DNA of 64,000 nt from Squalus acanthias (Eukaryota), in contig JASTWF010000034.1 in the NCBI GenBank assembly GCA_030390025.1, positions 5,394,001-5,458,000 of the forward strand, given 5' to 3'. This document shows positions 9,911-64,000 of the stretch, piece after piece (the stretch's first letter is position 1; the number at the start of each line of letters is the position of its first letter). The notes under the pieces are model-generated. The model made no database searches. It was not told the origin of the DNA and was given only the letters and a program-made list of their open reading frames with translations. Position numbers and translations under genes: made by a program.

Positions 9911-9984
9911 GTCTGTGATTGGACACCCCAACACGACCGGTCAAACCCCCGGCTCCGTGATCAGACACATCAATGGGACAAGTC

Positions 9985-10270
9985 AAACAGCCGAGTCCAT
10001 GATCAGTCACACCCCGGGGACTGGTCAAACGACCGAGTCCATGATCGGACACACCCAGGGGATTGGTCAAACAGCCGAGTCCATGATCAGTCACACCCCG
10101 GGGACTGGTCAAACGCCCGAGTCCATGATCGGACACACCCAGGGGATTGGTCAAGCAGCCGAGTCCATGATCAGTCACTCGCCGGGGACTGGTGAAACGC
10201 CCGAGTCCATGATCAGTCACTCCCCGGGGACTGTTCAAACGTCCGAGTCCATGATCGGACACAGCCCCGG
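9985..10270 (+). repeat. SatA' variant block (42-bp; AAACGCCCGAGTCCATGATC(A/G)G(T/A)CACACCCCGGGGACTGGTC), 7 copies
   Basis: GAGTCCATGATC occurs at 42-bp spacing from 9993 to 10245. Confidence 0.88.
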
Positions 10271-12745: not shown

Positions 12746-13825
12746 TCCCCAGGACCATTCAAACCCCTGTGACTGATCAGACCCCCGGGATCTGTCATAT
12801 CCCCGGGTCTTTTAAGGAACGCACCCCATGGACTGGTCAGATCCCCGGGATCGGTCAAGTTCCCGGGACTTGTCAATGCCCCAGGACCATGATCGGACAC
12901 ACTCCTGGGAGCGGTCGAACACCCAGGTCCAGTCAAATCAAATGATCTGTGATCGGATGCACCCTGCGTCCAGTCAAACCCCTGGGACAGCTCATACCCC
13001 CGGGTCCATAATCGGACCAACCCCCGGGACAGGTGTAATTACCGGGACTGGTAAAAAAACCCGGGTCTGTGATGGGACACAACCTAAGGACCGGTAAAAA
13101 ACCCCGGGACTGTGATCGGACAGAACCTATGGACCGGTAAAAACCCCCGGGACTGTGATTGGACACAACCAACGGACCGGTAAAAATCCCCGGGTCTGTG
13201 ATTGGACACCCCAACACGACCGGTCAAACCCCCGGCTCCGTGATCAGACACATCAATGGGACAAGTCAAATAGCCGAGTCCATGATCAGTCACACCCCGG
13301 GGATTGGTCAAACGCCCGAGTCAATGATCGGACACACCCAGGGGATTGGTCAAACAGCCAAGTCCATGATCAGTCACTCGCCGGGGACTGGTGAAACGCC
13401 CGAGTCCATGATCAGTCACTCCCCGGGGACTGGTCAAACGCCCGAGTCCATGATCAGTCACACCCCGGGGACTGGTCAAACAGTCGAGTCCATGATCAGT
13501 CACACCCCGGGGACTGGTCAAACGCCCGAGTCCATGATCAGACACACCCCGGGGACTGTTCAAACGCCCGAGTCCATGATCGGACACAGCCCCGGCACAG
13601 ATCAAACCCCTTGGTCTGGGCGAAATCCTGTGTCCGTGATCTGAAACACTCCTGGGACCGGTCAAACCGTCGGATCTTTGATCGGACACAACCCCGAGAC
13701 AGGTCAACCTCCTGGGACTTGTCAAACTCCCGTGACCAGTCTCACCACCGGGACCAGTCAAACCCCCGGGGCCATGGCCAAACAGACCCCTGGGACCGGT
13801 AAAACCCCAACACGTCAAAACCTCG
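12746..13825 (+). repeat. Degenerate satellite cassette, copy 2
   Basis: Collinear with 9420-10500 at an offset of 3325-3326 (GTCTTTTAAG at 9481 vs 12807; CTGGGCGAAA at 10291 vs 13616). Confidence 0.9.
13268..13595 (+). repeat. SatA' variant block, 8 copies
   Basis: GAGTCCATGATC-like motif at 42-bp spacing from about 13276 to 13570. Confidence 0.88.
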
Positions 13826-16730: not shown

Positions 16731-17230
16731 NNNNNNNNNNNNNNNNNNNNNNNNNNNNNNNNNNNNNNNNNNNNNNNNNNNNNNNNNNNNNNNNNNNNNN
16801 NNNNNNNNNNNNNNNNNNNNNNNNNNNNNNNNNNNNNNNNNNNNNNNNNNNNNNNNNNNNNNNNNNNNNNNNNNNNNNNNNNNNNNNNNNNNNNNNNNNN
16901 NNNNNNNNNNNNNNNNNNNNNNNNNNNNNNNNNNNNNNNNNNNNNNNNNNNNNNNNNNNNNNNNNNNNNNNNNNNNNNNNNNNNNNNNNNNNNNNNNNNN
17001 NNNNNNNNNNNNNNNNNNNNNNNNNNNNNNNNNNNNNNNNNNNNNNNNNNNNNNNNNNNNNNNNNNNNNNNNNNNNNNNNNNNNNNNNNNNNNNNNNNNN
17101 NNNNNNNNNNNNNNNNNNNNNNNNNNNNNNNNNNNNNNNNNNNNNNNNNNNNNNNNNNNNNNNNNNNNNNNNNNNNNNNNNNNNNNNNNNNNNNNNNNNN
17201 NNNNNNNNNNNNNNNNNNNNNNNNNNNNNN
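16731..17230. other. Assembly gap (exactly 500 N)
   Basis: Run of N from 16731 to 17230. A round fixed length is typical of a scaffolding placeholder of unknown true size. Confidence 0.99.
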
Positions 17231-44200: not shown

Positions 44201-47200
44201 TGTCTGATCACAGAGCCCGGGGGTTTGACTGGTCCCGGGGGTGTGTCTGATCACAGAGCCGGGGGTTTGACTGGTCCCGGGGGTGTGTCCGATCACAGAG
44301 CCGGGGTTTGACTGGTCCAGGGGTGTGTCCGATCACAGAGCCGGGGTTTGACTGGTCCCGGGGGTGTGTCTGATCACAGAGCCGGGGGTTTGACTGGTCC
44401 CGGGGGTGTGTCTGATCACAGAGCCGGGGGTTGACTGGTCCCGGGGGTGTGTCTGATCACAGAGCCGGGGGTTTGACTGGTCCCGGGGGTGTGTCTGATC
44501 ACAGAGCCGGGGGTTTGACTGGTCCCGGGGGTGTGTCTGATCACAGAGCCGGGGGTTTGACTGGTCCCGTGGGTGTGTCTGATCACAGAGCCGGGGTTTG
44601 ACTGGTCCGGGGGTGTGTCGATCACAGAGCCGGGGGTTTGACTGGTCCCGGGGGTGTGTCTGATCACAGAGCCGGGGGTTTGACTGGTCCTGGGGGTGTG
44701 TCTGATCACAGAGCCGGGGGTTTGACTGTCCCGGGGGTGTGTCTGATCACAGAGCCGGGGGTTTGACTGGTCCCGGGGGTGTGTCCGATCACAGAGCCGG
44801 GGTTTGACTGGTCCCGGGGGTTGTCTGATCACAGAGCCGGGGTTTGACTGGTCCCGGGGTGTGTCTGATCACAGAGCCGGGGTTTGACTGGTCCGGGGCT
44901 GTGGTCTGATCACAGAGCCGGGGGTTTGACTGGTCCCGGGGTGTGTCTGATCACAGAGCCGGGGTTTGACTGGTCCCGGGGGTGTGTCTGATCACAGAGC
45001 CGGGGGTTTGACTGTCCTGGGGGTGTGTCTGATCACAGAGCCGGGGGTTTGACTGGTCCTGGGGGTGTGTCTGATCACAGAGCCGGGGTTTGACTGGTCC
45101 CGGGGTTGTGTCGATCACAGAGCCGGGGTTTGACTGGTCCCGGGGGTTGGTCTGATCACAGAGCCGGGGTTTGACTGGTCCCAGGGGTGTGTCTGATCAC
45201 AGAGCCGGGTGATTGACTGATCCTGGGACTGTGTTTGATCACAGAGCCGGGGGTTTGACTGGTCCCGGGGGGGTGGGTGTCCGATCATAGACCCAGGGGT
45301 ATGACTGGTCCTGCGGGTGTGTCCGGTCGTAGACCCAGGGGTTTGACTGATCTCGGGGTGTGTCCGATTACAGACCCAGGGGTTTGACTGGTCCCAGCGT
45401 TCTGTCTGATCACAGAGCCGGGGTTTTTACTGGTCCCGGGTGTGTGTCTGATCACAGAGCCCGGGGTTTGACTGGTCCTTGGGTTGTGTCTGATCATAGA
45501 CCCGGGGGTTTAGCTGGACACGGGGGTGTATCCGATCAGAGAGCCGGGTGTTTGACTGGTCCTGGGGCTGTGTTTGATCACACGCCCTGGGGTTTGACTG
45601 CTCCCGGTGGAGTTTCTGATCACAGAGCCGGTGTTTTGACTGGTCCCGGGGCTGTGTCTGATCACAGAGCCGGGGGTTTGACTGGTCCCGGGGGTGTGTC
45701 TGATCACAGAGCCGGGGGTTTGACTGTCCCGGGGTGTGTCCGATCACAGAGCCGGGGGTTTGACTGGTCCCGGGGGTGTGTCTGATCACAGAGCCCGGGG
45801 TTTGACTGGTCCCGGGGGTGTGTCCGATCACAGAGCCGGGGGTTTGACTGTCCCGGGGGTGTGTCGATCACAGAGCCGGGGGTTTGACTGGTCCCGGGGT
45901 GTGTCCGATCACAGAGCCGGGGGTTTGACTGGTCCCGGGGGTGTGTCTCGATCACAGAGCCGGGGGTTTGACTGGTCCCGGGGGTGTTTCTGATCACAGA
46001 GCCTGGGGTTTGACTGTCCCGGGGTGTGTCTGATCACAGAGCCCGGGGTTTGACTGGTCCTGGGGGTGTGTCTGATCACAGAGCCGGGGGTTTGACTGTC
46101 CCGGGGGTGTGTCCGATCACAGAGCCGGGGGTTTGACTGGTCCCGGGGGGTGTGTCTGATCACAGAGGCCGGGGGTTTGACTGTCCTCGGGGTGTGTCTG
46201 ATCACAGAGCCGGGGGTTTGACTGGTCCCGGGGGTGTGTCTGATCACAGAGCCGGGGTTTGACTGGTCCTGGGGGGTGGGTCTGATCACAGAGCCGGGGG
46301 TTTGACTGTCCCTGGGGATGTTGTCTGATCACAGACCCGGGGGGTTTGACTGGTCCCGGGGGGGTGGGTCTGATCACAGAGCCGGGGTTTGACTGGTCCT
46401 GGGGGTGTGTCTGATCACAGAGCCGGGGTTTGACTGGTCCCGGGGTGTGTCCGATCACAGAGCCGGGGGTTTACTGGTCCCTGGTGTGTGTCTGATCACA
46501 GAGGCCGGGGTTTTACAGTCCCTGGGGGTGTGTCCGATCACAGACCCGGGGGTTTGACTGGTCCCGGGGGGGTGTCTGATCACAGAGCCGGGGGTTTGAC
46601 TGGTCCCGGGGGTGTGTCCGATCACAGAGCCGGGGGTTTGACTTGTCCTGGGGTGTCTCTGATCACAGAGCCGGGGGTTTGACTGGTCCCGGGGGGTGTG
46701 TCTGATCACAGAGCCGGGGTTTGACTGGTCCAGGGGGTGTGTCTGATCACAGAGCCGGGGGTTTGACTGGTCCCGGGGGTGTGTCTGATCACAGAGCCGG
46801 GGGTTTGACTGGTCCCGGGGGTGTGTCCTGATCACAGAGCCGGGGTTTGACTGGTCCCGGGGGTGTGTCTGATCACAGAGCCGGGGTTTGACTGGTCCCG
46901 GGGGTGTGTCTGATCACAGAGCCGGGGTTTGACTGGTCCGGGGGTGTGTCTGATCACAGACCCGGGGTTTGACTGGTCCGGGGGTGTGTCTGATCACAGA
47001 GCCGGGGGTTTGACTGGTCCCGGGGTGTGTCTGATCACAGAGCCGGGGGTTTGACTGGTCCCGGGGGGGGTGTCTGATCACAGAGCCGGGGGTTTGACTG
47101 TCCCGGGGGGGGTGTCTGATCACAGAGCCGGGGGTTTGACTGGTCCCGGGGTGTGTCCGATCACAGAGCCGGGGTTTGACTGGTCCCGGGGGTGTGTCTG

Positions 47201-49380
47201 ATCACAGAGCCGGGGTTTGACTGGTCCCGGGGGTGTGTCCGATCACAGAGCCGGGGGTTTGACTGGTCCCGGGGTGTGTCCGATCACAGAGCCGGGGGTT
47301 TGACTGGTCCCGGGGGTGTGTCTGATCACAGAGCCGGGGGTTTGACTGGTCCCTGGGGTGTGTCTGATCACAGAGCCGGGGGTTTGACTGGTCCCGGGGG
47401 TGTGTCCGATCACAGAGCCGGGGGTTTGACTGGTCCCGGGGGTGTGTCCGATCACAGAGCCGGGGTTTGACTGGTCCCGGGGGTGTGTCTGATCACAGAG
47501 CCGGGGGTTTGACTGGTCCCGGGGTGTGTCTGATCACAGAGCCGGGGGTTTGACTGGTCCTGGGGGTGTGTCTGATCACAGAGCCGGGGTTTGACTGGTC
47601 CCGGGGGTGTGTCTGATCACAGAGCCGGGGGTTTGACTGGTCCCGGGGTGTGTCCGATCACAGACCCGGGGGTTTCACTGGTCCTGGGGGTGTGTCCGAT
47701 CACAGAGCCGGGGTTTTGACTGGTCCCGGGGGTGTGTCCGATCACTGACCCAGGGGTTTGACTGGTCTCGGGGGTGTGTCCGATAATTGACCCTGGGGTT
47801 TGACTGGTCCAGGTGGCTATGTCCGATCACAGAGCCGGGGGTTTTACTGGTCCCTGGGCTGTGTCCGATCAGTGACCAGGGGGTTTGACTGATCCTGGGG
47901 GGTGTGTCCAATCACAGAGCCGGGGGTTTGACTAGTCCCGAAGGTGTTTCCATTCATTGACCCAGGGGTTTGACTGGTCCCGGGGGTGTGTCTGATCACT
48001 GACCCAGGGGTTTGACTGGTCCCGGGGGTGTGTCCGATCATTGACCCAGGGGTTTGACTGGTCCCGGGGCTGTGTCCGATCAGAGACCCGGGGGTTTGAC
48101 TGATCCCTGGGGTGTGTCCGATCACAGAGCCGGGGGTTTGACTGGTCCCGGGGGTGTGTCGATCACAGAGCCGGGGGTTTGACTGGTCCTGGGGGTGTGT
48201 CGATCACAGAGCCGGGGTTTGACTGGTCCCGGGGGTGTGTCCGATCACAGAGCCGGGGTTTGACTGTCCCGGGGGTGTGTCGATCACAGAGCCGGGGTTT
48301 GACTGGTCCCGGGGGTGTGTCTGATCACAGAGCCGGGGGTTTGACTGGTCCTGGGGGTGTGTCTGATCACAGAGCCGGGGTTTGACTGGTCCCGGGGGTG
48401 TGTCTGATCACAGAGCCGGGGGTTTGACTGGTCCCGGGGTGTGTCTGATCACAGAGCCGGGGTTTGACTGGTCCCGGGGGTGTGTCTGATCACAGAGCCG
48501 GGGTTTGACTGGTCCTGGGGTGTGTCCTGATCACAGAGCCGGGGGTTTGACTGGTCCCGGGGTGTGTCTGATCACAGAGCCGGGGTTTGACTGGTCCCGG
48601 GGGTGTGTCTGATCACAGACCCAGGGGTTTGACTGGTCCTGGGGTGTGTCCGATCACAGAGCCGGGTGATTGACTGATCCTTGGGCTGTGTCAGATCACA
48701 GAGCCAAGGGTGTGACTGCTGCCAGCGGTCTGTCTGATCACAGAGCTGGGGGTTTGACTGGTCCCGGGGGTGTGTCCGATCACAGACCCAGGGGTTTGAC
48801 TGCTCCTGGTTTGTGTCCGATCACAGACCCAATGGTTTGACTGGTCCCGGGGGTGTGTCCGATCACAGAGCCGGGGGTTTGACCAGTCACGGTGTTGTGT
48901 CTGATCACAGAGCCGGGGGTTTGACTGGTCCCGGGGGTGTGTCCGATCACAGAGCCGCGGTTTTGACCAGTCACGGGGTTCTGTCTGATCACAGAGCCGG
49001 GGGTTTGACTGGTACCCGGGGTGTGTCTGATCACAGAGCCGGTTGTTTGTCTGGTCCCGGGTGTGTGTCCGATCAGAGACCCAGGGAATTTGTATGTTCC
49101 CGGGGGTTGTGACCAATCACAGACCCGTAGGTTTGACTGGTCCCAGCGGTCTGTCTGTTCATGGACCGGGGTTGTAACTGGTCCTGGGGCTGTGTCTGAT
49201 CACAGACCCAGGGTTTTGACTGGTCCCGGGAGGTGTGTCTGATCACAGAGCCGCGGGTTTGACTGGTCCTGAGGCTGTGGATGATCACAGAGCCGGGGGT
49301 TTGACAGCTCCTAAGGCTGTGTCTGATCACAGACCCAGGGTTTTGACTGGCCCTGGGGATGTGTCTGATCAGAGAGCCCG
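17231..49380 (-). repeat. SatA 42-bp satellite array in reverse orientation (G-rich strand on +)
   Basis: Repeated TTTGACTGGTCCCGGGGGTGTGTCTGATCACAGAGCCGGGGG is the reverse complement of the SatA monomer. It is mostly near-consensus with frequent +/-1 homopolymer indels. Confidence 0.97.
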
Positions 49381-49560
49381 TGTTTTTGACGTCCTAATCG
49401 TTTTACCGTTCCCAGGGGTGTCTTTGATCTTGCCCCGGGGCATTGACTGGTTCCGGTGTTTAGACTGTTCACGGGAGTTTGACCAGTCCCAGGAGTTTGA
49501 CCTGGAGAGTTTCAGATCACGGACTCGTGATTTCGTTCAGACCATGGTGTTTGATTCGTG
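49381..49560 (-). repeat. Cassette exit flank (diverged homolog of ~10270-10500) forming the SatA/SatB junction
   Basis: The reverse complement reads CACGAATCAAACACCATGGTCTGAACGAAATCACGAGTCCGTGATCTGAAAC...CTCCCGTGAACAGTCTAAACACCGG...ACGTCAAAA. This matches CACAGATCAAACCCATTGGTCTGGGCGAAATCCTGTGTCCGTGATCTGAAAC...CTCCCGTGACCAGTCTAACCACCGG...ACGTCAAAA on the left. Confidence 0.85.
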
Positions 49561-52500
49561 ATGGGCTCCTCTTCTCTGGTCTAACAGTGTGTGTGTGGGA
49601 GTCTAAATGGGCTCTTGGTCTCTGATCTAACAGTGTGTGTGAGAATCTGAATGAGCTCCTGGTCTCAGATCTAGCATTGTGTGTCTGGGATTCTGAATGA
49701 GCTCCTGGTCTCTTATCTAACAGTGTGTGTCTGGGAGTCTGAATTGGCTCTTGGTCTCTGATCCAACAGTATTTGCTTGAAAGTCTGAATGAGCTCCTGG
49801 TCTCTGATCTAACAGTGTGTGTGTGGGAGGCAGAATGAGCTCCTGGTCTCTAATCTAACAGTATGTGTTTGGGAGTATGTATGGGTTCCTGGTCCCTGAT
49901 CAAACAGTATATGTGTGGGCGTCTGAATGGGCTCCTGGTCTCTGATCTAACAGTGTGTGTATGGGAGTCTGTATTGGCTCCGGGTCTCTGATCCAACAGT
50001 AGGTGCGTGGAAGTGTGAATGAGCTCGTGGTGTCTGATCTAACAGTGTGTGTGAGAGTCTGAATGAGCTCCTGGTCTCTGATCTAACAATCTGTGTCTGG
50101 CAGTCTGAATGAGCTCCTGGTCTCTGATCCAACAGTGTGTGTGTGGGAGTCAGAATGAGCTCCTGGTCTCTGATCTAACAATGGGTGTCTGGGTGTCTGA
50201 ATGAGCTCCTGGTCTCTGATCTAACAGTGTGTGTGAGAGTGTGAATGAGCTCCTGGTCTCTTATCTGACAGTGTGTGTGAGAGTCTGAATGAGCTCCTGG
50301 TCTCTGATCTAACAGTGTGTGTGAGAGTCTGAATGAGCTCCTGGTCTCTGATCTAGCAGTGTGTGTGGGAGTCAGAATGAGCTCCTGGTCTCTGATCTAA
50401 CATTGTGTGTGTTGGAGTCTGAATGGAATCCTAGTCTCTGATCTAACAGTGTGTGTGTGGGACTCTGAATGGGCTCCTGGTCTCTGCTCTAACACTGCGT
50501 GTCTGGGAGTCAGATTGAGCTCCTGGTCTCTGATCTAACAGTGAGTGTGTGGATGCCTGAATCGACTCCTGGTCTCTGCTCTAACAGTGTGTTTGTGCGA
50601 TTCTGAATTGTCATCTGGTCTCTGCTCTAACAGTGTTTGTGTGTGAGTCAGAATGAGCTCCTGGTCTCTGAACTAACTGTGTGTGTTTTGGAGTCTGAGT
50701 GGGCTCCTGGTATCTGATCCAACAGTGTGTGTATGGAAGTCTGAATTGGCTCCTGGTCTCTGGTACAACAGTATGTGCTTGGAAGTCTGAATGAACTCCT
50801 GGTCTCTGATCTAACAGTTGTGTGTGCGGGAGTCTGAATTAGCTCCTGCTCTCTGATCTAACAGTGTGTGTGTGAGTCTGAATGTGCTCCTGGTCCCTGA
50901 TCTAACAGTGTGTGTATGGGAGTCTGAAATCGCAGTTTGTCTCTGATCCAACAGTGTGTGTCTGGGAGTCTGAATAAACTCCTGGTCTCTGATCTAACAC
51001 TGTCTGTGATAGTCTGAATGAACTCCTGGTCTCTGATCTATCAATGAGTGTATGGGTGTCTGAATGAGCTCTTGGTCTCTAATCTAACAGTGTATGAGGC
51101 TGTCTGAATGAGCTCCTGGCCTCTGATCTAACACTGATCGCGTAGGAGTCTGAATGAACTCCTGGTGTCTGATCTAACAGTGTGTGCATGGGAGTCTGAA
51201 TGGGCTCCTGGTGTCTGATCTAACAGTGTGTGTATGGGAGTCTGAAATGGATCCTGGTCTCTGATGAAACAGTAGGTGCGTTGAAGTCTGAATGAGCTCC
51301 TGGTGTCTGATGTAACAGTGTGTGTATGGGAGTCTGAATGGGCTCCTGGTCTCTGATCTAACAATGTGTGTGTGGGAGTCTGAATGGGCTCCTGGTCTCT
51401 GATCTTACGGTGTGTGTGTGGGAGTCCGAATGAGCTCCTGGCCTCTGATCTAACAGTGTGTGTGTGGGAGTCTGAATGGGCTCCTCGTCTCTGATCTAAC
51501 AATGTGTGTGTGGGAGTCTGAATGGGCTCCTGGTCTCTGATCTAACAGTGTGTGTGTCGGTGTCTGAATGGGCTCCTGGTCTCTGATCTGACAGTGTCTG
51601 TGCGGGAGCCTGAATGGGCTCATGGTCTCTGATCTAACAGTGTGAATGTGGGAGTCTGAATGGGCTCTTGCTCTCTGATCTAACAGTGTGTTTGTGGGAG
51701 TCTGAATGAGCTCCTGGTCTCTGATCTAATAGTGTGTGTGTGTGAGTCTGAATGGGCTCCTGGTCTCTGATCTTACAGTGTGTGTGTGGGAGTCTGAATG
51801 GGCTCCTCGTCTCTGATCTAACAATGTGTGTGTGGGAGTCTGAATGGGCTCCTGGTCTCTGATCTTACAGTGTGTGTGTCGGTGTCTGAATGGGCTCCTG
51901 GTCTCTGATCTGACAGTGTCTGTGCGGGAGCCTGAATGGGCTCATGGTCTCTGATCTAACAGTGTGAATGTGGGAGTCTGAATGGGCTCTTGCACTCTGA
52001 TCTAACAGTGAGTGTTTGGGAGACCGAAAGGGCTCCTGGTCTCTGATCTAACAATGTGTGTGTGGGAGTCTGAAACAGCTCCTGGTATCTGATCTAACAG
52101 TGTCTGAGTGGGAGTCTGAATGGGCTCCTGGTCTCTGATCTAACAGTGTGATTGCGGGAGTCTGAATGGGCTACTTGTCACTGATGTAAAAGTGTGTGAG
52201 TGGGACTCTGAATGGGGTCCTGTTCTCTGATCTAACAATGTGTTTGTGGGAGTTTGAATGAGCTCCTGATCTCTGATCTAAAATTGTGAGTGTGGGAGTC
52301 TGAATGGGCTCCTGGTCTCTGATCTAACAGTGAGTGTGTGGTAGTCGGAATGAGCTCCTGGTCTCTGATCTAACAGTGTGATTGCGGGAGTTTGAATGGG
52401 CTACTTGTCACTGATGTAAAAGTGTGTGAGTGGGACTCTGAATGAGCTCCTGTTCTCTGATCTAACAATGTGTTTGTGGGAGTTTGAATGAGCTCCTGAT

Positions 52501-55500
52501 CTCTGATCTAAAATTGTGAGTGTGGGAGTCTGAATGGGCTCCTGGTCTCTGATCTAACAGTGTGTGTGTGGGAGTCTGAATGGGTTCCTGGTCTCTGATC
52601 TAACAGTGTGCGTATGGGAGTCAGTGTTGGCTCCTGGTCTCTGATTCAACAGTATGTGCTTGGAAGTCTGAATGAGCTCCTGGTCTCTGATCTAACAGTG
52701 TGTGTGTGGGAGTCAGAATGAGCTCCTGGTCTCTGATCTAACAGTGTCTGTGTGGGAGTCTGATTGTGTCCGTGGTCTCCGATCTAAGAGTTTGTGTATG
52801 GGAGTCTGAATTGGCTCCTGGTCTCTGATCCAAAAGTGTGTGTCTGGGAGTCTGAAATAACTCCTGGTCTCTGATCTAACACTGTGTGTGATAGTCTGAA
52901 TGAGCTCCTTGTCGCTGATCTAACAATGAGTGTCTGGGTTTCTGAATGAGCTCCTGGTCTCTGATCTAACAGTGTGTGTGAGAGTCTGAATGAGCTCCTG
53001 GTCTCTGATCTACCACTGTGTGTGTGGGAGTCTGAATGGGCTCTTGTTCTCTGATCCAACAGTATTTGCTTGAAAGTCTGAATGAGCTCCTGGTCTCTGA
53101 TCTAACAGTGTGTGTGTGGGAGTCAGTATGAGCTCCTGGTCTCTGATCTAACAGTGTGTGTGTGGGAGACAGAATGATCACCTGGTCTCTAATCTAACAG
53201 TATGTGTTTGGGCGTCTGAATGGGTTCCTGGTCCCTGATCAAATAGTATATGTGTGGGCGTCTGAATGGGCTCCTGGTCTCTGATCTAACAGTGTGTGTA
53301 TGGGAGTCTGAATTGGCTCCGGGTCTCTGATCGAACAGTAGGTGCGTGGAAGTCTGAATGAGCTCGTGGTGTCTGATCTAACAGTGAGTGTGTGGTAGTC
53401 GGAATGAGCTCCTGGTCTCTGACCTAACAGTGTGTGTGTAAGAGTCGGAATGAGCTCCTGGTCTCTGATTTAACAGTGTGTGTGTGAGAGTCTGAATGAG
53501 CTCCTGGTCTCTGATCTAATATTGTGTGTGTGGGAGTCAGAATGAGCTCCTGGTCTCTGATCTAACAATGGGTGTCTGGGTGTCTGAATGAGCTCATGGT
53601 CTCTTATCTAACAGTGTGTGTGAGAGTCTGAATGAGCTCCTGGTCTCTGATCTAACAGTGTGTGTGAGAGTCTGAATGAGCTCCTGGTCTCTCATCTAAC
53701 ATTGTGTGTGTTGGAGTCTGAATGGAATCCTAGTCTCTGATCTAACAGTGTGTGTGTGGGACTCTGAATGGGCTCCTGGTCTCTGCTCTAACACTGTGTG
53801 TCTGGGAGTCAGATTGAGCTCCTGGTCTCTGATCTAACAGTGAGTGTGTGGATACCTGAACCGACTCCTGGTCTCTGCTCTAACAGTGTGTTTGTGCGAT
53901 TCTGAATTGTCATCTGGTCTCTGGTCTAACAGTGTTTGTGTGTGAGTCAGAATGATCTCCTGGTCTCTGAACTAACTGTGTTTGTTTTGGAGTCTGAGTG
54001 AGCTCCTGGTATCTGATCCAACAGTGTGTGTATGGAAGTCTGAATTGGCTCCTGGTCTCTGGTACAATAGTATGTGCTTGGAAGTCTGAATGAACTCCTG
54101 GTCTCTGATCTAACAGTTGTGTGTGCGGGAGTCTGAATGAGCTCCTGCTCTCTGATCTATCAGTGTGTGTGTGGGAGTCTGAATGTGCTCCTGGTCTCTG
54201 TTGTAAGAGAGTGTGTGTGGGAGTCTGAATGAGCTCCTGGCCTCTGATCTAACAGTGTGTGTGTGGGAGTCTGAATGGGCTTCTGGTCTCTGATCTGACG
54301 GTGTGTGTGTGGGAGTTTGAATGGGCTCCTTGTCTCTGATCTAACAGTGTGTGTGTGGGAGTCTGAATGAGCTCCTGGTCTCTGATCTAACAGTGTGTGT
54401 GTGTGAGTCTGAATGGGCTCCTGGTCTCTGATCTTACAGTGTGTGTGTGGGAGTCTGAATGGGCTCCTCGTCTCTGATCTAACAATGTGTGTGTGGGAGT
54501 CTGAAACAGCACCTGGTCTCTGATCTAACAGTGTCTGAGTGGGAGTCTGCATGGGCTCCTGGTCTCTGATCTAACAGTGTGATTGCGGGAGTCTGAATGG
54601 GCTACTTGTCACTGATGTAAAAGTGTGTGCGTGGGAGTCTAAATGGGCTCCTGTTCTCTGATCTAACAATGTGTTTGTGGGAGTTTGAATGAGCTCCTGA
54701 TCTCTGATCTAACATTGTGAGTGTTGGAGTCTAAATGGGCTCCTGTTCTCTGATCTAACAATGTGTTTGTGGGAGTTTGAATGAGCTCCTGGTCTCTGAT
54801 CTAACAGTGTGTGTGTGGGAGACAGAATGATCACCTGGTCTCTAATCTAACAGTATGTGTTTGGGCGTCTGAATGGGTTCCTGGTCCCTGATCAAATAGT
54901 ATATGTGTGGGCGTCTGAATGGGCTCCTGGTCTCTGATCTAACAGTGTGTGTATGGGAGTCTGAATTGGCTCCGGGTCTCTGATCGAACAGTAGGTGCGT
55001 GGAAGTCTGAATGAGCTCGTGGTGTCTGATCTAACAGTGAGTGTGTGGTAGTCGGAATGAGCTCCTGGTCTCTGACCTAACAGTGTGTGTGTGAGAGTCG
55101 GAATGAGCTCCTGGTCTCTGATTTAACAGTGTGTGTGTGAGAGTCTGAATGAGCTCCTGGTCTCTGATCTAATATTGTGTGTGTGGGAGTCAGAATGAGC
55201 TCCTGGTCTCTGATCTAACAATGGGTGTCTGGGTGTCTGAATGAGCTCATGGTCTCTTATCTAACAGTGTGTGTGAGAGTCTGAATGAGCTCCTGGTCTC
55301 TGATCTAACAGTGTGTGTGAGAGTCTGAATGAGCTCCTGGTCTCTCATCTAACATTGTGTGTGTTGGAGTCTGAATGGAATCCTAGTCTCTGATCTAACA
55401 GTGTGTGTGTGGGACTCTGAATGGGCTCCTGGTCTCTGCTCTAACACTGTGTGTCTGGGAGTCAGATTGAGCTCCTGGTCTCTGATCTAACAGTGAGTGT

Positions 55501-58500
55501 GTGGATACCTGAACCGACTCCTGGTCTCTGCTCTAACAGTGTGTTTGTGCGATTCTGAATTGTCATCTGGTCTCTGGTCTAACAGTGTTTGTGTGTGAGT
55601 CAGAATGATCTCCTGGTCTCTGAACTAACTGTGTTTGTTTTGGAGTCTGAGTGAGCTCCTGGTATCTGATCCAACAGTGTGTGTATGGAAGTCTGAATTG
55701 GCTCCTGGTCTCTGGTACAATAGTATGTGCTTGGAAGTCTGAATGAACTCCTGGTCTCTGATCTAACAGTTGTGTGTGCGGGAGTCTGAATGAGCTCCTG
55801 CTCTCTGATCTATCAGTGTGTGTGTGGGAGTCTGAATGTGCTCCTGGTCTCTGTTGTAAGAGAGTGTGTGTGGGAGTCTGAATGAGCTCCTGGCCTCTGA
55901 TCTAACAGTGTGTGTGTGGGAGTCTGAATGGGCTTCTGGTCTCTGATCTGACGGTGTGTGTGTGGGAGTTTGAATGGGCTCCTTGTCTCTGATCTAACAG
56001 TGTGTGTGTGGGAGTCTGAATGAGCTCCTGGTCTCTGATCTAACAGTGTGTGTGTGTGAGTCTGAATGGGCTCCTGGTCTCTGATCTTACAGTGTGTGTG
56101 TGGGAGTCTGAATGGGCTCCTCGTCTCTGATCTAACAATGTGTGTGTGGGAGTCTGAAACAGCACCTGGTCTCTGATCTAACAGTGTCTGAGTGGGAGTC
56201 TGCATGGGCTCCTGGTCTCTGATCTAACAGTGTGATTGCGGGAGTCTGAATGGGCTACTTGTCACTGATGTAAAAGTGTGTGCGTGGGAGTCTAAATGGG
56301 CTCCTGTTCTCTGATCTAACAATGTGTTTGTGGGAGTTTGAATGAGCTCCTGATCTCTGATCTAACATTGTGAGTGTTGGAGTCTAAATGGGCTCCTGTT
56401 CTCTGATCTAACAATGTGTTTGTGGGAGTTTGAATGAGCTCCTGGTCTCTGATCTAACAGTGTGTGTGTGGGAGTCTGAATGGGTTCCTGGTCTCTGATC
56501 TAACAGTGTGTGTGTGAGAGACTGAATGGGTTCCTGGTCTCTGATCTAACAGTGTGTGTGTGGGAGTCTGAATGCGTTCCTGGTCTCTGATCTAACAGTG
56601 TGTGTGTGGGAGTCTGAATGGGTTCCTGGTCTCTGATCTAACAGTGTGTGTGTGAGAGACTGAATGGGTTCCTGGTCTCTGATTTAACAGTGTGTGTGTG
56701 AGAGACTGAATGGGTTCCTGGTCTCTGATCTCACAGTGTGTGTTTGGGAGTCTGAGTGGGCTCCTGGTCTCTGATCTAACAGTGTGCGTATGGGAGTCAG
56801 TGTTGGCTCCTGGTCTCTGATTCAACAGTATGTGCTTGGAAGTCTGAATGAGCTCCTGGTCTCTGATCTAACAGTGTGTGTGTGGGAGTCAGAATGAGCT
56901 CCTGGTCTCTGATCTAACAGTGTGTGTCTTGGTGTCTGAATGAGCTCCTGGTCTCTGATCTAACAGTGTGTGTGTGGATGTCTGAATGAGCTCCTGGTGT
57001 CTGATCTAACAGTGTGTGTACGGAAGTCTGAATGGGCTCCTGGTCTCTTGACTAACTGTGTGTGTTTTGGAGTCTGAATGGGCTCCTGGTATCTGATCCA
57101 ACAGTGTGTGTATGGAAGTCTGAATGGGCTCCTGGTCTCTGATCTAACAGTGTGTGTGTGGGAGTCAGAATGAGCTCCTGGTCTCTGATCTAACAATGTG
57201 AGTATGGGAGTCTGTATGGGTTCCTGGTCTCCGATATAACAGTATGTGTTTGGGAGTCTGAATGGGCTCCTGGTCTCTGATCTAACAGTGTGTATGGGAG
57301 ATTGAATGAACTCCTGGTCTCTGATCTAACACTGTGTGTGATAGTCTGAATGAACTCCTGGTGTCTGATTTAACACTGTGTGTGATAGTCTGAATGAGCC
57401 CCTGGTCTCTGATATAATAGTGTGTGTGTGGGAGACTGAATGGGCTCCCGGTCTCTGCTCTAACAGTGTGTTTATGCGATTCTGAATTGTCATCTGGTCA
57501 CTGCTCTAACAGTGTGTGTGTGGGAACTCTAAGGGTTCCTGGTCTCTGATATAACAGTGTGTGTGTGTGAGTCAGAATGAGCTCCTGGTCTCTGAACTAA
57601 CTGTGTGTGTTTTGGAGTCTGAATGGGCTCCTGGTCTCTGATCCAACAGTGTGTGTATGGAAGTCTGAATGGGCTCCTGCTCTCTGATCTAACAGTGTGT
57701 GAGTGGGAGTCAGATTGAGCTCCTGGTCTCTGAACTAACTGTGTGTGTTTTGGAGTCTGACTGAACTCCTGGTCTCTGATCTAACACTGTTTGTCTGGGT
57801 GTCTGAATGAGCTCTTGCTCTCTGATCTAACAGTGTGTGTGGGTGTCTGAATGAGTTCCTGGTCTCTGATCTAACAGTGTGTGTGTGGGTGTCTGAATGA
57901 GCTCCTGATCTCTGATCTAACACTGCGTGTGTGGGTGTCTGAATGAGCTCTTGCTCTCTGATCTAACAGTGTGTGTGGGTGTCTGAATGAGTTCCTGGTC
58001 TCTGATCTAACAGTGTGGGTGTGGGAGTCTGATTGGGCTCCTGGTCTCTGATCTAACACTGTGTGTGTGGGAGTCTGAATGGGCTCCTGGTCTCTGATCT
58101 AACAGTGTGTGTGTGGGAGTCTGAATGAGCTCCTGATCTCTGATCTAACATTGTGTGTGTGGGTGTCTGAATGAGCTCCTGGTCCCTGATCTAACAGTGT
58201 GTGTGTGGGAGTCTGAATGAGCTCCTGATCTCTGATCTAACATTGTGTGTGTGGGTGTCTGAATGGGCTCCTGGTCTCTGATCTAACAGTGTGGGTGTGG
58301 GAGTCTGATTGGCTCGTGGTCTCTGATCCAACAGTGTGTGTCTGGGAGTCTGACTGAACTCCTGGTCTCTGATCTAACACTGTGTGTCTGGGTGTCTGAA
58401 TGAGCTCTTGGTGTCTGATCTGACAGTGTGTGTGAGAGTCTAAAGGCGCTCTAGTTTCTGATCTAACAGTGTGTGTGTGGGAGTCTGAATGAGCTCCTGG

Positions 58501-60650
58501 TCTCTGATCTAATAGTGTGTGTGAGACTCTGAATGTGCTCCTGGTCTCTGATCTAACAGTGTGTGTGTGGGCGTCTGAATGAGCTCCTGGTCTCTGATCT
58601 AATAGTGTGTGTGAGACTCTGAATGTGCTCCTGGTCTCTGATCAAACAGTGTGTGTGTGGGAGTCTGAATGAGCTCCTGGTCTCTGATCTAATAGTGTTT
58701 GTGAGACTCTGAATGTGCTCCTTGTCTCTGATCAAACAGTGTGTGTGTGGGAGTCTGAATGGGATCCTGGTCTCTGATCTAACAGTGTGTGTGTGGATGC
58801 CTGAATCGGCTCCTGGTCTCTGATTTAACAGTGTGTGTCAGAATCTGAATGAGCTCCTGGTCTCAGATCTAACATTGTGTGTCTGGGATTCTGAATGAGC
58901 TCCTGGTCTCTTATCTAACAGTGTGTGTCTGGGAGTCTGAATTGGCTCTTGGTCTCTGATCCAACAGTATTTGCTTGAAAGTCTGAATGAGCTCCTGGTC
59001 TCTGATCTAACAGTGTGTGTGTGGGAGGCTGAATGAGCTCCTGGTCTCTAATCTAACAGTAGGTGCGTTGAAGTCTGAATGAGCTCGTGGTGTCTGATCT
59101 AACAGTGTGTGTATGGGAGTCTGAATTGGCTCCGGGTCTCTGATCCAACAGTAGGTGCGTTGAAGTCTGAATGAGCTCGTGGTGTCTGATCTAACAGTGT
59201 GTGTGGGAATGTGAATGAGCTCCTGGACTCTGATCTAACAGTGTGTGTGTGGGAGTCTGAATGAGCTCCTGGTCTCTGATCTAATAGTGTGTGTGAGACT
59301 CTGAATGTGCTCCTGGTCTCTGATCAAACAGTGTGTGTGTGGGAGTCTGAATGAGCTCCTGGTCTCTGATCTAATAGTGTCTGTGAGACTCTGAATGTGC
59401 TCCTTGTCTCTGATCAAACAGTGTGTGTGTGGGAGTCTGAATGGGATCCTGGTCTCTGATCTAACTGTGTGTGTGGGGGATTCTGAATGGGCTCCTGGGC
59501 TCTGATTTAACAGTGTGTGTGTGGATGCCTGAATCGGCTCCTGGTCTCTGATCTAACAGTGTGTGTGAGTCAGAATGAGCTCCTGGTCTCTGAACTAACT
59601 GTGTGTGTTTTGGAGTCTGAGTGTGCTCCTGGTATCTGATCCAACAGTGTGTGTATGGAAGTCTGAATCGGCTCCTGGCCTCTGGTACAACAGTATGTGC
59701 TTGGAAGTCTGAATGAACTCCTGGTCTCTGATCTAACAGTTGTGTGTGGGAGTCAGAATGAGCTCCTGCTCTCTGATCTAACAGTGTGTGTGTGGGAGAA
59801 TGTATGGGTTCCTGGTCTCCGATCTAACAATATGTGTGTGGGAGTCTGAATGTGCTCCTGGTCTCTGATCTAACAGTGTGTGTGTGGGAGTCTGATTGAG
59901 CTCCTTGTCTCTCATCTAGCAGTATGTGTGTGGGAGTCTGAATGTGCTCCTGGTCTCTGATCTAACAGTGTGTGTCTGGGAGTCTGAATAAACTCCTGGT
60001 CTCTGATCTAACACTGTGTGTGATAGTCTGAATTAACTCCTGGTCTCTGATCTATCAATGAGTGTGTGGGTGTCTGAATGAGCTCTTGGTCTCTGATCTA
60101 ACAGTGTATGTGGCTGCCTGAATGAGCTCCTGGTCTCTGATCTAACATTGATCGCGTAGGAGTCTGAATGAGCTCCTGGTCTCTGATCAAACACTGATCG
60201 CGTAGGAGTCTGAATGAGCTCCTGGTCTCTGATTTAACAGTGTGTGTGTGGGAGACTCCATGGGCTCCTGGTGTCTGATCTAACAGTGTGTGTGTGTGGG
60301 AGTCTGAAATGGCTCTGGGTCTCTGATCCAACAGTAGGTGCGTTGAAGTCTGAATGAGCTCCTGGTGTCTGATCTAACAGTGTGTGGGAATCTGAGTGAG
60401 CTCCTGGTCTCTGATCTAACAGTGTGTGTGTGGGAGTCGGAATGAGCTCCTGGTCTCTGATCTAACAGTGTGTGTCTGGGAGTCTGAATGAACTCCTGGT
60501 CTCTGATCTAACAGTATGTGTGATAGTCTGAAGCAACTCCTAGTTTCTGATGTGACAGTGTGTATGTGGGTGTCTGAATGAACCCCTGGTCTCTGATCTA
60601 ACAGTGTGTGTGTCGGAGACTGATTGGGCTCCTGGTCTCTAATATAACAG
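49561..60650. repeat. Tandem satellite array 'SatB', 46-bp monomer (44-bp variants), about 240 copies
   Basis: Consensus CTCTGATCTAACAGTGTGTGTGTGGGAGTCTGAATG(A/G)GCTCCTGGT. Length variation comes from the internal (GT)n tract. Confidence 0.97.
53128..56433. repeat. Near-perfect 1653-bp tandem duplication within SatB
   Basis: Identical translated ORFs at 54160-54552 and 55813-56205 (offset 1653). The rare variant GACAGAATGATCACCTGG occurs at about 53168 and 54821. Confidence 0.92.
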
Positions 60651-61380
60651 TCCCCGGGGTGTGTCCGATCATGGACTCGGGCGTTTGGCCAGTCCCCGGG
60701 TCTGTGTCCGATCATGGCCTCCGGCGTTTGACCAGTCCCCGGGGTGTTTCCGATCATGGACTCGTGCGTTTTACCAGTCGCCGGGGTGTGTCCGATCATG
60801 GCCTCCGGCGTTTGACCAGTCCCCGGGGTGTGTCGGATCATGGACTCGGGCGTTTGACCAGTGTCCGGAGCTGTGTCCGATCATGGACTCGGGCGTTTCA
60901 CCATACCCGGGGTGCATCCAATCATGGACTCGGCTGTTTGACCAGTCCCCAGAGTGTGTCCGATCATGGAGTCCGGCGTTTGACCAGTCCCCTGTGTGTC
61001 TGATCATGGACTCGGGCGTTTGTCCAGTCCCCTGTGTGTCTGATCATGGACTCGGGCGTTTGACCAGTCCCCTGTGTGTCTGATCATGGACTCGGGCGTT
61101 TGACCAGTCCCCTGTGTGTCTGATCATGGACTCGGGCGTTTGACCAGTCCCCTGTGTGTCTGATCATGGACTCGGGCGTTTGACCAGTCCCCTGTGTGTC
61201 CGATCATGGACTCGGGCGTTTGACCAGTCCCCTGTGTGTCCGATCATGGACTCGGGCGTTTGACCAGTCCCCTGTGTGTCTGATCATGGACTCGGGCGTT
61301 TGACCAATCCTCGGTGTGTCCGATCATGGACTCGGGCGTTTGACCAGTCCCCAGGATGTGTCTGATCATGGACTCAGCCG
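60651..61380 (-). repeat. SatA' block (minus strand), including a 40-bp minisatellite
   Basis: Repeated GATCATGGACTCGGGCGTTTGACCAGTCCCC is the reverse complement of SatA'. Confidence 0.9.
60981..61340 (-). repeat. 40-bp near-perfect minisatellite (TGACCAGTCCCCTGTGTGTCTGATCATGGACTCGGGCGTT) x9
   Basis: Exact 40-bp phase from 60981 to 61340. It is a 2-bp-shorter derivative of SatA'. Confidence 0.92.
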
Positions 61381-61950
61381 TTTGACTTGTCCCAGTGATG
61401 TGTCTGAAGACGGAGCCGTGGGTTTGACCGGTCGTGCTGGTGTGTCCATTCACAGACCCGGGGTTTGACCAGTCCCGGGAGTTTGACCTGTCTCGGGGTT
61501 GTGTCCGATTACGGACACGGGTGTTTGAGCGGTCCCAGTGTATTTGTCCGGTCGCAGGACCTGGGTGTTGGACCGGTCCGAGGAGTGTGTCCGATCATGG
61601 TTCCAGTGGCTGACCAGGCCCGCGGGTTAAACTGGTCCCGGTGGTTTGACCGTTTCCGCGGTGTGTCCGTTCAAGGAACCGGTGGTTTAACTGGACCCAG
61701 GGGTGTTTTCGATCATGGACCCAGGAGTTTGAACAGTCCTGGGGGTTTGACCAGTCACAGGAGTTTCAACGCTCCCAGGGGTGTGTCTGATCACAGACCC
61801 GCAGGTTTGACCGGTCCCAGGAACGGGTCTGATTAGCGACATGCAGGTTTGACCAGTCCCGGGGGTTTGGCGTATACCAGGGTTCTAAGCAGTCCCAGGG
61901 ATGTGACCGATCACAGACCCGGGGGCTTGAACGGTTCCAGGTGATTAAAT
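61381..61950 (-). repeat. Degenerate SatA-derived cassette upstream/entry flank (18-bp modules)
   Basis: The reverse complement contains CACGACCGGTCAAACCCACGGCTCCG...CACATCACTGGGACAAGTCAAA (cf. 9930-9990) and CCATGATCGGACACACTCCTCGGACCGGTCCAACACCCAGGTCC (cf. 9561-9604). Confidence 0.8.
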
Positions 61951-63228
61951 TGTGTGTGTAGGTGTCTGAATGTGCTCCTGCTCTCTGATTTAACAGTGTG
62001 TGTGTGGAAGTCTGAATGGGCGCCTGTTCTCTGATCTAACAGTGTGTTTGTGGGAGTCTGAATGAGTTCCTGGTCTCTGATCTAACAGTGCGTGTGTTGG
62101 AGTCTGAATGGGCTCCTGGTCTCTGATCTAACAGTGTCTTTGTGGGAGTCTGAATGGGCTCCTGGTCTCTGATTTAACAGTGGGTGTGTGGGAGTCTGAA
62201 TTAGCTCCTGATCTCTGTTCTAACATTGTGTGTGTGGGAGTCTGAATTAGCTCATGGTCTCTGATCTAACAGAGTGTGTGTGGGAATCTGAATGGGCTCC
62301 TGGTCTCTGATCTAACAGTGTGTTTGTGGGAGTCTGAATGAGCTCCTTTTCTCTCATCTAACAGTATGTGTGTGGGAGTCTGAATGTGCTCCTGGTCTCT
62401 GATCTAACAGTGTGTGTCTGGGAGTCTGAATAAACTCCTGGTCTCTGATCTAACACTGTGTGTGATAGTCTGAATTAACTCCTGGTCTCTGATCTATCAA
62501 TGACTGTGTGGGTGTCTGAATGAGCTCTTGGTCTCTGATCTAACAGTGTATGTGGCTGCCTGAATGAGCTCCTGGTCTCTGATCTAACATTGATCGCGTA
62601 GGAGTCTGAATGAGCTCCTGGTCTCTGATCTAACACTGATCGCGTAGGAGTCTGAATGAGCTCCTGGTCTCTGATTTAACAGTGTGTGTGTGGGAGACTG
62701 CATGGGCTCCTGGTGTCTGATCTAACAGTGTGTGTGTGTGGGAGTCTGAAATGGCTCCGGGTCTCTGATCCAACAGTAGGTGCGTTGAAGTCTGAATGAG
62801 CTCCTGGTGTCTGATCTAACAGTGTCTGGGAATCTGAGTGAGCTCCTGGTCTCTGATCTAACAGTGTGTGTGTGGGAGTCGGAATGAGCTCCTGGTCTCT
62901 GATCTAACAGTGTGTGTCTGGGAGTCTGAATGAACTCCTGGTCTCTGATCTAACAGTATGTGTGATAGTCTGAATGAGCTCCTGGTCTCTGATCTAACAA
63001 TGTGTGTCTGGGAGTCTGAATGAACTCCTGGTCTCTGATCTAACAGTATGTGTGAGAGTCTGAAGGAGCTCCTAGTTTCTGATCTGACAGTGTGTATGTG
63101 GGTGTCTGAATGAACCCCTGGTCTCTGATCTAACAGTATGTGTGTGGGAGTCTGAATGGGCTCCTTGTCTCTGATCTAACAGTGTGTGTGTCGGAGACTG
63201 ATTGGGCTCCTGGTCTCTGATCTAACAG
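61951..63228. repeat. Second SatB block (46/44-bp monomers)
   Basis: Same consensus as 49561-60650. The portion from about 62300 to 63228 duplicates about 59860-60650. Confidence 0.95.
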
Positions 63229-64000
63229 TCCCCGGGGTGTGTCCGATCTTGGACTCGGGCGTTTGGCCAGTCCCCGGGTCTGTGTCCGATCATGGCCTCC
63301 GGCGTTTGACCAGTCCCCGGGGTGTTTCCGATCATGGACTCGTGCGTTTTACCAGTCCCCGGGGTGTGTCCGATCATGGCCTCCGGCGTTTGACAAGTCC
63401 CCGGGGTGTGTCGGATCATGGACTCGGGCGTTTGACCAGTGTCCGGAGCTGTGTCCGATCATTGACTCGGGCGTTTCACCATACCCGGGGTGCATCCAAT
63501 CATGGACTCGGCTGTTTGACCAGTCCCCAGAGTGTCTCCGATCATGGAGTCCGGCGTTTGACCAGTCCCCTGTGTGTCTGATCATGGACTCGGGCGTTTG
63601 ACCAGTCCCCTGTGTGTCTGATCATGGACTCGGGCGTTTGACCAGTCCCCTGTGTGTCTGATCATGGACTCGGGCGTTTGCCCAGTCCCCTGTGTGTCCG
63701 ATCATGGACTCGGGCGTTTGACCAGTCCCCAGGATGTGTCTGATCATGGACTCAGCCGTTTGACTTGTCCCAGTGATGTGTCTGATCACGGAGCCGTGGG
63801 TTTGACCGGTCGTGCTGGTGTGTCCATTCACAGACCCGGGGTTTGACCAGTCCCGGGAGTTTGACCTGTCTCGGGGTTGTGTCCGATTACGGACACGGGT
63901 GTTTGAGCGGTCCCAGTGTATTTGTCCGGTCGCAGGACCTGGGTGTTGGACCGGTCCGAGGAGTGTGTCCGATCATGGTACCAGTGGCTGACCAGGCCCG
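63229..64000 (-). repeat. SatA' block (four 40-bp units at 63559-63718) plus cassette entry flank; runs off the window end
   Basis: Near-identical to 60651-61620 apart from the 40-bp copy number. Confidence 0.9.

Follow-up and report, generated by a model that had tools for sequence, protein, structure and literature searches.

How does an 11-kb array of one satellite come to lie inside a short cassette of another? The question is raised by a window of Squalus acanthias DNA (the whole stretch of 64,000 nucleotides analysed here), in which an array of SatB monomers is bracketed on one side by an entry flank and a run of SatA′ monomers and on the other by an exit flank and the bulk SatA array. 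The minus-strand order entry, SatA′, SatB, exit, SatA had been given in a preliminary description of this DNA, and we could confirm it, together with the short words quoted there and the starts of the two exit flanks in the left part of the window at 10271 and 13596. On the whole that observation proved largely real and was partly confirmed, and its interpretation, a filled/empty-site pair recording the insertion or in situ expansion of one satellite within another, was partly supported.

Organization of the window

Table 1. Satellite arrays, cassettes and junctions in the window (E, empty cassettes; F, filled copies).
Feature	Position	Strand	Remarks
Left SatA array (42-bp)	1..16730	+	More diverged; 0.79–0.91 identity to consensus per 2 kb
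E1 cassette	9430..10497	+	Includes degenerate monomers
E1 43-bp run	9718–9926	+	
E1 entry	9909–9983	+	
E1 SatA′	9984–10270	+	
E1 exit	10271–10497	+	
E2 cassette	12756..13822	+	3.3-kb duplicate of E1, 94–95% identical
E2 entry	13192–13266	+	
E2 SatA′	13267–13595	+	
E2 exit	13596–13822	+	
35 bp of terminal SatA′ monomer	10236..10270 (E1), 13561–13595 (E2)	+	Missing from filled copy
Scaffold gap	16731..17230		500 N; SatA orientation flips across gap
Right SatA array	17231..49380	-	More homogeneous; 0.90–0.97 identity to consensus per 2 kb
F1 exit flank	49381..49560	-	81–83% identical to E exits; 48-bp deletion
F1 SatB array	49561..60645	-	~46-bp monomers, 242 plus 22-bp partial; 17.8% mean pairwise divergence
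Tandem duplication within SatB	53146..56451	-	1,653 bp; 1 mismatch in 1,653
F1 5′ junction	60646..60651	-	6-bp microhomology ACTGTT, common to E-type penultimate SatA′ monomer and SatB consensus
F1 SatA′ run	60646..61384	-	18 monomers, 9 of 18 a 40-bp variant
F1 entry flank	61385..61460	-	91% identical to E entries
Degenerate SatA-family block	61461..61950	-	Adjoins F2 SatB; not collinear with E upstream block
F2 SatB array	61951..63223	-	28 monomers; 3′ junction unlike that of F1
F2 SatA′ run	63224..63762	-	13 monomers; ends in same ACTGTT junction as F1 (63229–63224)
F2 entry flank and upstream block	63763..64000	-	98.7% identical to F1; runs beyond window end

The left and right SatA arrays (Table 1) do not form one clean inverted duplication, a reading that we considered and rejected: just scattered blocks match, at 6–8% divergence. 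Both empty cassettes are housed in the left array. The preliminary description overlooked a second filled copy, F2 (61951–64000), and SatB adjoins the upstream block at 61950 as well. A weak search of shark and elasmobranch satellite literature, PMC11406177 included, found neither repeat described, and metagenome scans with an exit-flank motif and with a SatB word gave 0 loci each.

The filled copy and its empty counterparts

Of the 152 window loci on which the 180-bp exit flank of F1 was scored, E1 and E2 give 192.5 and 176.5, and the remaining 150 reach 96 at most; the 96-bp proximal entry gives 145.5 and 141.5 on the two cassettes, and at most 113 on the remaining 210 of its 212 loci. Judged by these alignment scores, the match of the F1 flanks to the left cassettes is position-specific. 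With SatB excised in silico the F1 flanks are collinear with E2, as the preliminary description had expected of both cassettes; against E1 a global aligner misplaced the first 56 bp of the exit, which a multiple alignment places correctly. Collinearity fades upstream of the entry, where 61620–61470 scores 157 and 141 on the left cassettes (background maximum 139.5) and 61950–61620 scores best on bulk SatA; an attempt to align the latter segment with the E upstream block found no collinearity. The left cassettes have 7 and 8 SatA′ monomers, against 18 in F1. SatB does stand in the end of the SatA′ run, as first described, and the length it replaces is 35 bp.

The two sides of the cassette have diverged unequally: over 78 aligned bp the proximal entry of F1 is 91–94% identical to those of E1 and E2, the exit just 81–83%, and differences in the exit outnumber those in the entry (31/181 vs 5/78, p=0.03, in one comparison; 35/181 vs 7/78, p=0.04, in the other) within boundaries that were set after viewing the alignment. 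Because their exit flanks are this distant from that of F1 and are further set apart by the 48-bp deletion, E1 and E2 are, on sequence grounds, to be regarded as older paralogues, a sister lineage with the ancestral layout, and not as the pre-insertion allele. They count as one witness, since both belong to one 3.3-kb duplication, and they owe their place here to scaffolding, for they lie on the strand opposite to the filled copy and on the far side of the 500-N gap. The earlier claim of an empty site kept twice thus holds in so far as both cassettes match the flanks, but not as two independent records, and the filled/empty pair stands at the level of old paralogues whose exit flanks differ by 17–19%.

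Junctions and the second filled copy

A 6-bp overlap such as that at the 5′ junction is seen by chance in 0.56% of 200,000 random SatA′/SatB breakpoint pairs; the TT of ACTGTT possibly comes from SatB alone, which would leave a 4-bp overlap, reached by chance in 2.3%. The word GGACTGTT occurs at just five places, namely in the penultimate monomer of each E cassette, at each of the two filled junctions and at 61732, and the junction monomer F1.18 has one difference from E2.7. Since the E terminal monomer is nearly equidistant from F1.13 (5.5–6.5) and F1.18 (5–6), the 5′ breakpoint could lie ~200 bp further upstream. The 3′ junction (49560/49561) displays no clean exact microhomology, and the insertion is accompanied by a 35-bp loss and no target duplication, the longest word common to the end and the start being 2 bp. 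The insert consists of SatB monomers end to end, and this monomer decomposition shows no transposon ends or coding sequence around it. Signs of reintegration from a circle are equivocal: in F1, SatB starts at monomer position 41/1 and ends at 22, and the partials do not make up one whole monomer, and in F2 it ends at position 41, in register, with the SatA′ continuation absent; later expansion can erase such a sign.

F1 and F2 are adjacent duplicates, and in both of these two filled copies the 5′ junction is alike, carrying separate differences (3 in 101), and the 3′ end is different. The first ~20 SatB monomers of F2 correspond to the head of F1 (98.6%), and for the last ~8 F1 offers no near counterpart. 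The data fall short of proving a single insertion event, since F2 combines the 5′ junction of F1 with another 3′ end and the divergences of the flanks differ.

Makeup and relationships of SatB

All SatB segments lie on one strand, with no inversion point within the nested array. Blocks of four monomers have their nearest neighbours at 0–11% (10th–90th percentile), against the mean pairwise divergence of 17.8%, and the internal duplications are of many ages. When SatB was compared with SatA, SatA′ and the 43-bp unit, 21–248 of 300 dinucleotide shuffles reached the observed score across 10 comparisons; in the control comparison of SatA′ with SatA, 0 of 300 did. At the level of sequence no relationship of SatB to SatA can be detected, although the two might have had a common origin very long ago. 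Given this lack of detectable likeness and its abundance in four public runs, SatB was probably imported from elsewhere and not born at F1.

Copies in public sequencing runs

Those four runs (X1, X2, X6 and X7, of the 11 designated X1–X11) were compared with the sequence around the 49560 junction. Near-identical copies of the F1 exit flank were found in X1, X2 and X6, in which SatB has a depth of 10^4–10^5 vs 4–148 where the exit flank is unique, depth not being the same as copy number; the same three runs have extra depth at 49515–49553. SatB is deep in X7 too and is abundant in runs from three organisms; most of the exit flank is without cover in X7, which is uninformative as absence. Runs X7–X11 contain small shares (0.05–0.14) of 60400–62200. 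One contig in X1 (1 difference in 137) and one in X2 (9 differences in 241) match the exit flank and stop exactly at 49560, with 69 and 68 unplaced letters beyond. Against that stretch a tail of E type scores 11–13 and would stay unplaced, and SatB 69-mers would be placed (minimum 21 of 300). Such stops would fit a sister copy that is truly empty and nearly identical in its flank; were such a copy confirmed, the event could be dated and typed across individuals. Among the pieces listed for the four runs, none bridges 49560/49561.

Origin of the nested array

We favour, with a probability of roughly 0.6, an origin in which SatB was copied into SatA′ by break repair at the 6-base word, replacing 35 bp, and then underwent local tandem growth and duplication. 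Repair of a break in the SatA′ run would have led onto SatB, either by end joining or by a template switch at the microhomology, with an existing SatB array as the source of the patch; the return to the exit flank would have cost the 35 bp; unequal exchange would then have enlarged SatB to 11 kb; and a unit of entry, SatA′ and SatB head would have been duplicated ~1.4% divergence ago. Several features speak for insertion followed by local expansion, which was one half of the earlier interpretation: flanks that are collinear, the 6-bp microhomology, the missing 35 bp and the duplications within SatB. The other half, an origin in situ from a SatA′ monomer, was not borne out, given the shuffle comparisons (62–248 of 300 shuffles attaining the real score) and the abundance of SatB in all four runs.

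It is unlikely, if far from negligible, that the SatA′–SatB and SatB–exit joints derive from different paralogous cassettes or times and were united by unequal exchange within SatB, in which case the entry and SatA′ block may be an island in a larger SatB domain continuing beyond 64000. An exchange between two SatB arrays predicts just such an F1-like head with an unmatched tail as F2 displays, and the higher identity of the entry than of the exit, the fact that SatB flanks the F1 entry block to either side, and the departure of the near-identical X1 and X2 exit flanks from the window sequence at 49560 point the same way. However, the two joints fall within 35 bp in a ~1.07-kb cassette, as independent events would seldom do, and orientation is concordant throughout. 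The departure of two independent samples exactly at 49560, with no bridging piece among those listed, in a region containing the 500-N gap and the 1,653-bp near-perfect duplication, might also be taken for an assembly misjoin of a SatB array onto the exit flank of an empty cassette. This we consider improbable: the joint lies where the E cassettes predict it, 35 bp from the other, with no overlap at 49560 for an assembler to mis-merge, and Logan contigs drop rare links; the 5′ joint at least, being present twice with separate differences, is no one-off error.

A filled ancestral state, with the empty cassettes arising by loss of SatB, would accord with the similarity of the inter-monomer divergence of SatB (17.8%) to the E/F exit divergence, and SatB may have left the TT of the penultimate E monomer as a scar. 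Yet the 35 bp between the E breakpoints is ordinary in-register SatA′, so that a deletion would need a second event, and segment calling assigned nothing in E1 or E2 to the SatB class, making such a loss very improbable. As for birth in place, by which a single SatA′ monomer would have mutated and been amplified, SatB and SatA do have in common a strand bias and short words such as GATCAGA, but their likeness does not rise above the shuffles in 10 of 10 comparisons, no intermediate monomers lie at the junction, and SatB is abundant in three organisms; we give this scarcely any credence.

We also raise, as a tentative and rather doubtful possibility, that the SatA′–SatB junction is a unit that duplicates and moves whole and that the 11–14-kb SatB block is young, near-identical filled and empty cassettes coexisting in living animals. 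If so, a vertebrate would here offer a satellite-in-satellite insertion that can be dated and may be segregating even now. No function is implied for the nested arrays, for which neutral satellite turnover is enough.

Comparison with known systems

The locus offers a base-resolved case of one satellite entering another and growing there; 64 kb suffice to show the ancestral layout together with the junction word and a duplication that came later. The mechanism is already described in flies and humans, and because it has been published for Drosophila and for human centromeres, and nothing points to function, the value of the present case is illustrative. In cactophilic Drosophila, the junctions of the non-homologous satellites pBuM and DBC-150 are likewise ascribed to illegitimate recombination (Kuhn et al. 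2009, cited in PMC5555486), but the two are finely interspersed, in contrast to the one long nested array seen here. In Tribolium madens, TmSat2 "cassettes" are embedded in TmSat1 (PMC13081366), again a minor within a major satellite, in which the transition zones recur and the inner repeats vary in number. Those two satellites share an origin, however, and feature cassette inversion and thousands of conserved transitions, whereas SatB is one-stranded, lacks detectable likeness to SatA, and has one repeated and two different junctions.

A vertebrate parallel is provided by human chromosomes 3 and 4, where HSat1A entered active alpha-satellite arrays and expanded there (Altemose et al., bioRxiv 10.1101/2021.07.12.452052): there too the array is nested between flanks of concordant orientation and read as insertion plus expansion. 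Those arrays are centromeric, of megabase scale and present in all haplotypes examined (32/32 and 33/33); SatB of F1 sits in a degenerate landmark of 1 kb that has empty paralogues. The closest likeness is to the Drosophila simulans clade, in which Rsp-like was inserted into 1.688 clusters (Sproul et al. 2020, PMC7403614). The Drosophila hybrid junction is found at many X loci, whereas here there are two adjacent tandem duplicates within a 64-kb window, and the present array measures 11 kb and sits inside a long satellite domain. In both cases, two unrelated satellites meet, one of their junctions displays microhomology (6 bp here, 7 and 4 bp in Drosophila), and the host has lost a comparable length (35 bp here, 36 bp in the Drosophila type 3). 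The Drosophila clusters have one common junction and a variable other end, a pattern that the adjacent duplicates F1 and F2 resemble, and insertion there is followed by local expansion and by movement as higher-order units, as would probably be the case here.

Layout of the satellite window

Satellite DNA of the eukaryotic type fills the window end to end, as judged by TRF and a sliding classification, and consists mainly of the 42-bp satellite SatA and the 46-bp satellite SatB, with SatA-family variant monomers (SatA′) in cassettes that either lack SatB (E1, E2) or contain it (F1, F2).

Satellite features of the window, with strand and basis of assignment
Feature	Position	Strand	Basis or placement
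SatA, 42 bp	1-16730	+	TRF + sliding classification
E1, degenerate cassette	~9430-10497	+	inside left SatA
E2, degenerate cassette	~12756-13822	+	inside left SatA
500-N scaffold gap	16731-17230		
SatA	17231-49380	-	TRF + sliding classification
F1 exit flank	49381-49560	-	
F1 SatB array, 46 bp	49561-60645	-	
F1 SatA′	60646-61384	-	
F1 entry + degenerate block	61385-61950	-	
F2 SatB array	61951-63223	-	
F2 SatA′	63224-63762	-	
F2 entry sequence	63763-64000 (window end)	-	

SatA orientation flips across the scaffold gap, and the left block may have been misoriented or misplaced by scaffolding; the two sides share scattered matching blocks at 6-8% divergence and differ in homogeneity (identity to consensus 0.79-0.91 left, 0.90-0.97 right). 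TRF output shows an 18+24 substructure in SatA (1-49380). The tandem consensus of the right block has stop-free frames (2/3 on one strand, 1/3 on the other), as expected when a repeat unit is short and GC-rich; they do not point to a gene. A run of a 43-bp variant with longer A tracts is seen at 9718-9926 and 13045-13209, in E1 and E2 only.

Filled and empty cassettes

The 11-kb SatB array is truly nested in a SatA cassette, and paralogous cassettes show the empty layout. The words quoted in the preliminary description all lie where it placed them. The F1 exit flank scores 192.5 on E2 and 176.5 on E1, with no score above 96 among the remaining 150 of 152 window loci; likewise, the proximal F1 entry scores 145.5 and 141.5 on the E cassettes, with none above 113 among the remaining 210 of 212. 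These matches are specific, beyond general SatA resemblance. With SatB excised in the script, the flanks are collinear with E2; on E1 the multiple alignment places the exit correctly, but the global aligner misplaced its first 56 bp. SatB sits where it had been proposed to replace about one SatA′ monomer; E1 and E2 have there 35 bp that belong to their terminal SatA′ monomer.

The empty site had been described as preserved twice. However, E1 and E2 (528/553 and 342/363 bases identical) represent a single 3.3-kb duplication, placed across the scaffold gap and on the opposite strand from F1/F2, and hence count once. Moreover, the divergence of the flanks makes them old paralogues of F1: the entry is 91-94% identical over 78 aligned bases, and the exit 81-83% with a 48-bp deletion. 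Collinearity between F1 and E is weak at 61620-61470, and none was found with the E upstream block at 61950-61620. The SatA′ runs comprise 18, 13, 7 and 8 monomers in F1, F2, E1 and E2, respectively. Upstream of the F entry (61503-61482) sits a 22-bp word that the E cassettes carry in their exit flank (10362-10383; 13687-13707), mostly within the stretch deleted in the F1 exit; the degenerate blocks look like old monomers, reshuffled.

We also uncovered a second filled copy, F2 (61951-64000), overlooked earlier. Its entry, 3′ SatA′ portion and SatB head match those of F1 at 98.6-98.7% identity; it has the 5′ junction in common with F1 and a different junction at its other end. A 40-bp SatA′ variant is present in 9 copies in F1 (60983-61342) and 4 in F2 (63561-63720), a copy change after the F1/F2 duplication. 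F2 continues past the window end, and additional copies or a further SatB array may lie beyond.

Junction anatomy and public runs

At the 5′ junction (SatA′ to SatB; F1 60646, F2 63224) the filled copies match E through GGGGACTGTT, and the SatB consensus ends in the same final six bases; an overlap of at least 6 bp occurs at 0.56% of 200,000 random breakpoint pairs. The TT variant is rare: of the five occurrences of GGACTGTT in the window, two are in the E penultimate monomers, two at the junctions and one at 61732. The SatA′ monomers F1.18 and E2.7 are one base apart. Two points tell against this reading. TT possibly came from SatB alone, giving an overlap of 4 bp (chance 2.3%). In addition, F1.13 resembles the E terminal monomer almost as closely as F1.18 does, so that the true breakpoint may be some 200 bp further upstream. 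The support for this junction is its two diverged copies, both within the window. At the F1 3′ junction (49560/49561) SatB is cut at position 22; a clean overlap was sought there and none found, nor was a target duplication found around the insert.

The segment 60400-62200 is partly present in 11 public runs of 5 studies (shares 0.05-0.43), and contigs of 4 of the 11 were compared over 49320-49700. The F-type exit flank with the deletion occurs in X1 and X2 (organism A, two samples) and partly in X6 (organism B). Two contigs, record 3 of X1 (1 difference in 137) and record 9 of X2 (9 differences in 241), end exactly at 49560, with 69 and 68 further letters, respectively, unaligned in those pieces. 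An E-type tail there would begin with a mismatch and fail to align (scores 11 and 13), and 300/300 SatB 69-mers score at least 21. Thus, 49560 marks the point where alternative structures diverge. The contig ends fit a near-identical empty copy, or they may carry short filler and then SatB; a bolder reading, less likely than not, has filled and empty copies of near-identical sequence existing side by side and the hybrid junction moving as one unit. No piece bridging 49560 was found among those listed for the four runs; Logan contigs lose rare links, and these runs weigh neither for nor against the junction. At 49515-49553 depth in X1, X2 and X6 exceeds that of the listed contigs, with no letter differences listed; the excess possibly comes from E-type flanks. 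At 49342-49452, X1 has two exit-flank versions (depth 39.1 with 4 differences; 11.5 with 1), X2 only the first of these kinds and X6 a third. Probably, the F-type exit is either polymorphic or present in several copies.

Probable origin and growth of SatB

In 10 comparisons, each against 300 of its own shuffles, the likeness of the SatB consensus to SatA, SatA′ or the 43-bp unit did not exceed that of the shuffles (21-248/300), with 0/300 for the SatA′-SatA control. Summed SatB depth peaks at ~2.6x10^4 to 3.9x10^5 in four runs from three organisms, and unique parts of the exit flank reach 4-148 in X1, X2 and X6, depth not being copy number in either case. Given the lack of likeness to the SatA family above shuffles and the high SatB depth, SatB is most likely an abundant family already existing elsewhere. 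The F1 monomers diverge by 17.8% on average, and yet nearest-neighbour 4-monomer blocks differ by 0-11% (10th to 90th percentile), with only 1 mismatch in a tandem copy of 1,653 bp (53146-56451); hence, the array probably grew in place from a multi-monomer seed. The 1,653-bp duplication is either very young or an assembly duplication.

Mechanism and alternatives

The best explanation, to which we assign a probability of about 0.6, is that repair of a break in the SatA′ run would have switched to a SatB template at the 6-base word, with return to the exit flank and loss of 35 bp; the array would then have enlarged through unequal exchange, and the entry-SatA′-SatB-head unit been duplicated later. 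We infer the repair and exchange steps from the observed anatomy and established repair biology. The main rival, a chimera assembled in two steps, is distinctly less probable. In its favour, divergence is higher in the exit than in the entry (p=0.03-0.04, with boundaries picked after the fact), F2 resembles an F1 head joined to a foreign tail, and SatB adjoins the entry block on both sides; against it, both joints fall 35 bp apart on the E cassette.

An assembly misjoin at 49560 is improbable. Slightly more so is a filled ancestor with SatB lost from the now empty cassettes, and birth of SatB in place, given its unlikeness to the SatA family, is the least credible.

Comparison with known systems

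Neither SatA nor SatB was found described in the shark/elasmobranch satellite literature searched or in the passages of PMC11406177 consulted, although supplementary satellite catalogues could include them. That paper's FISH probe, a Y-linked shark satellite of 46 bp, has the unit length of SatB and a short stretch similar by eye. Elsewhere, the sections consulted report HSat1A inserted and expanded inside human alpha-satellite arrays (Altemose et al., bioRxiv 10.1101/2021.07.12.452052) and, in Tribolium madens (PMC13081366), cassettes of a minor satellite lying within the major one and having an internal inversion, unlike the SatB array; Kuhn et al. 2009, as cited in PMC5555486, is a further case. 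The closest parallel, in the relevant sections of Sproul et al. 2020 (PMC7403614), is Drosophila Rsp-like, inserted in clusters of 1.688, a satellite to which it is unrelated. Microhomology there is 4-7 bp, one junction is shared and the other varies, one type has lost 36 bp of host sequence, and the inserts have moved as higher-order units. Dispersal aside, the nested SatB array probably works like these insertions.
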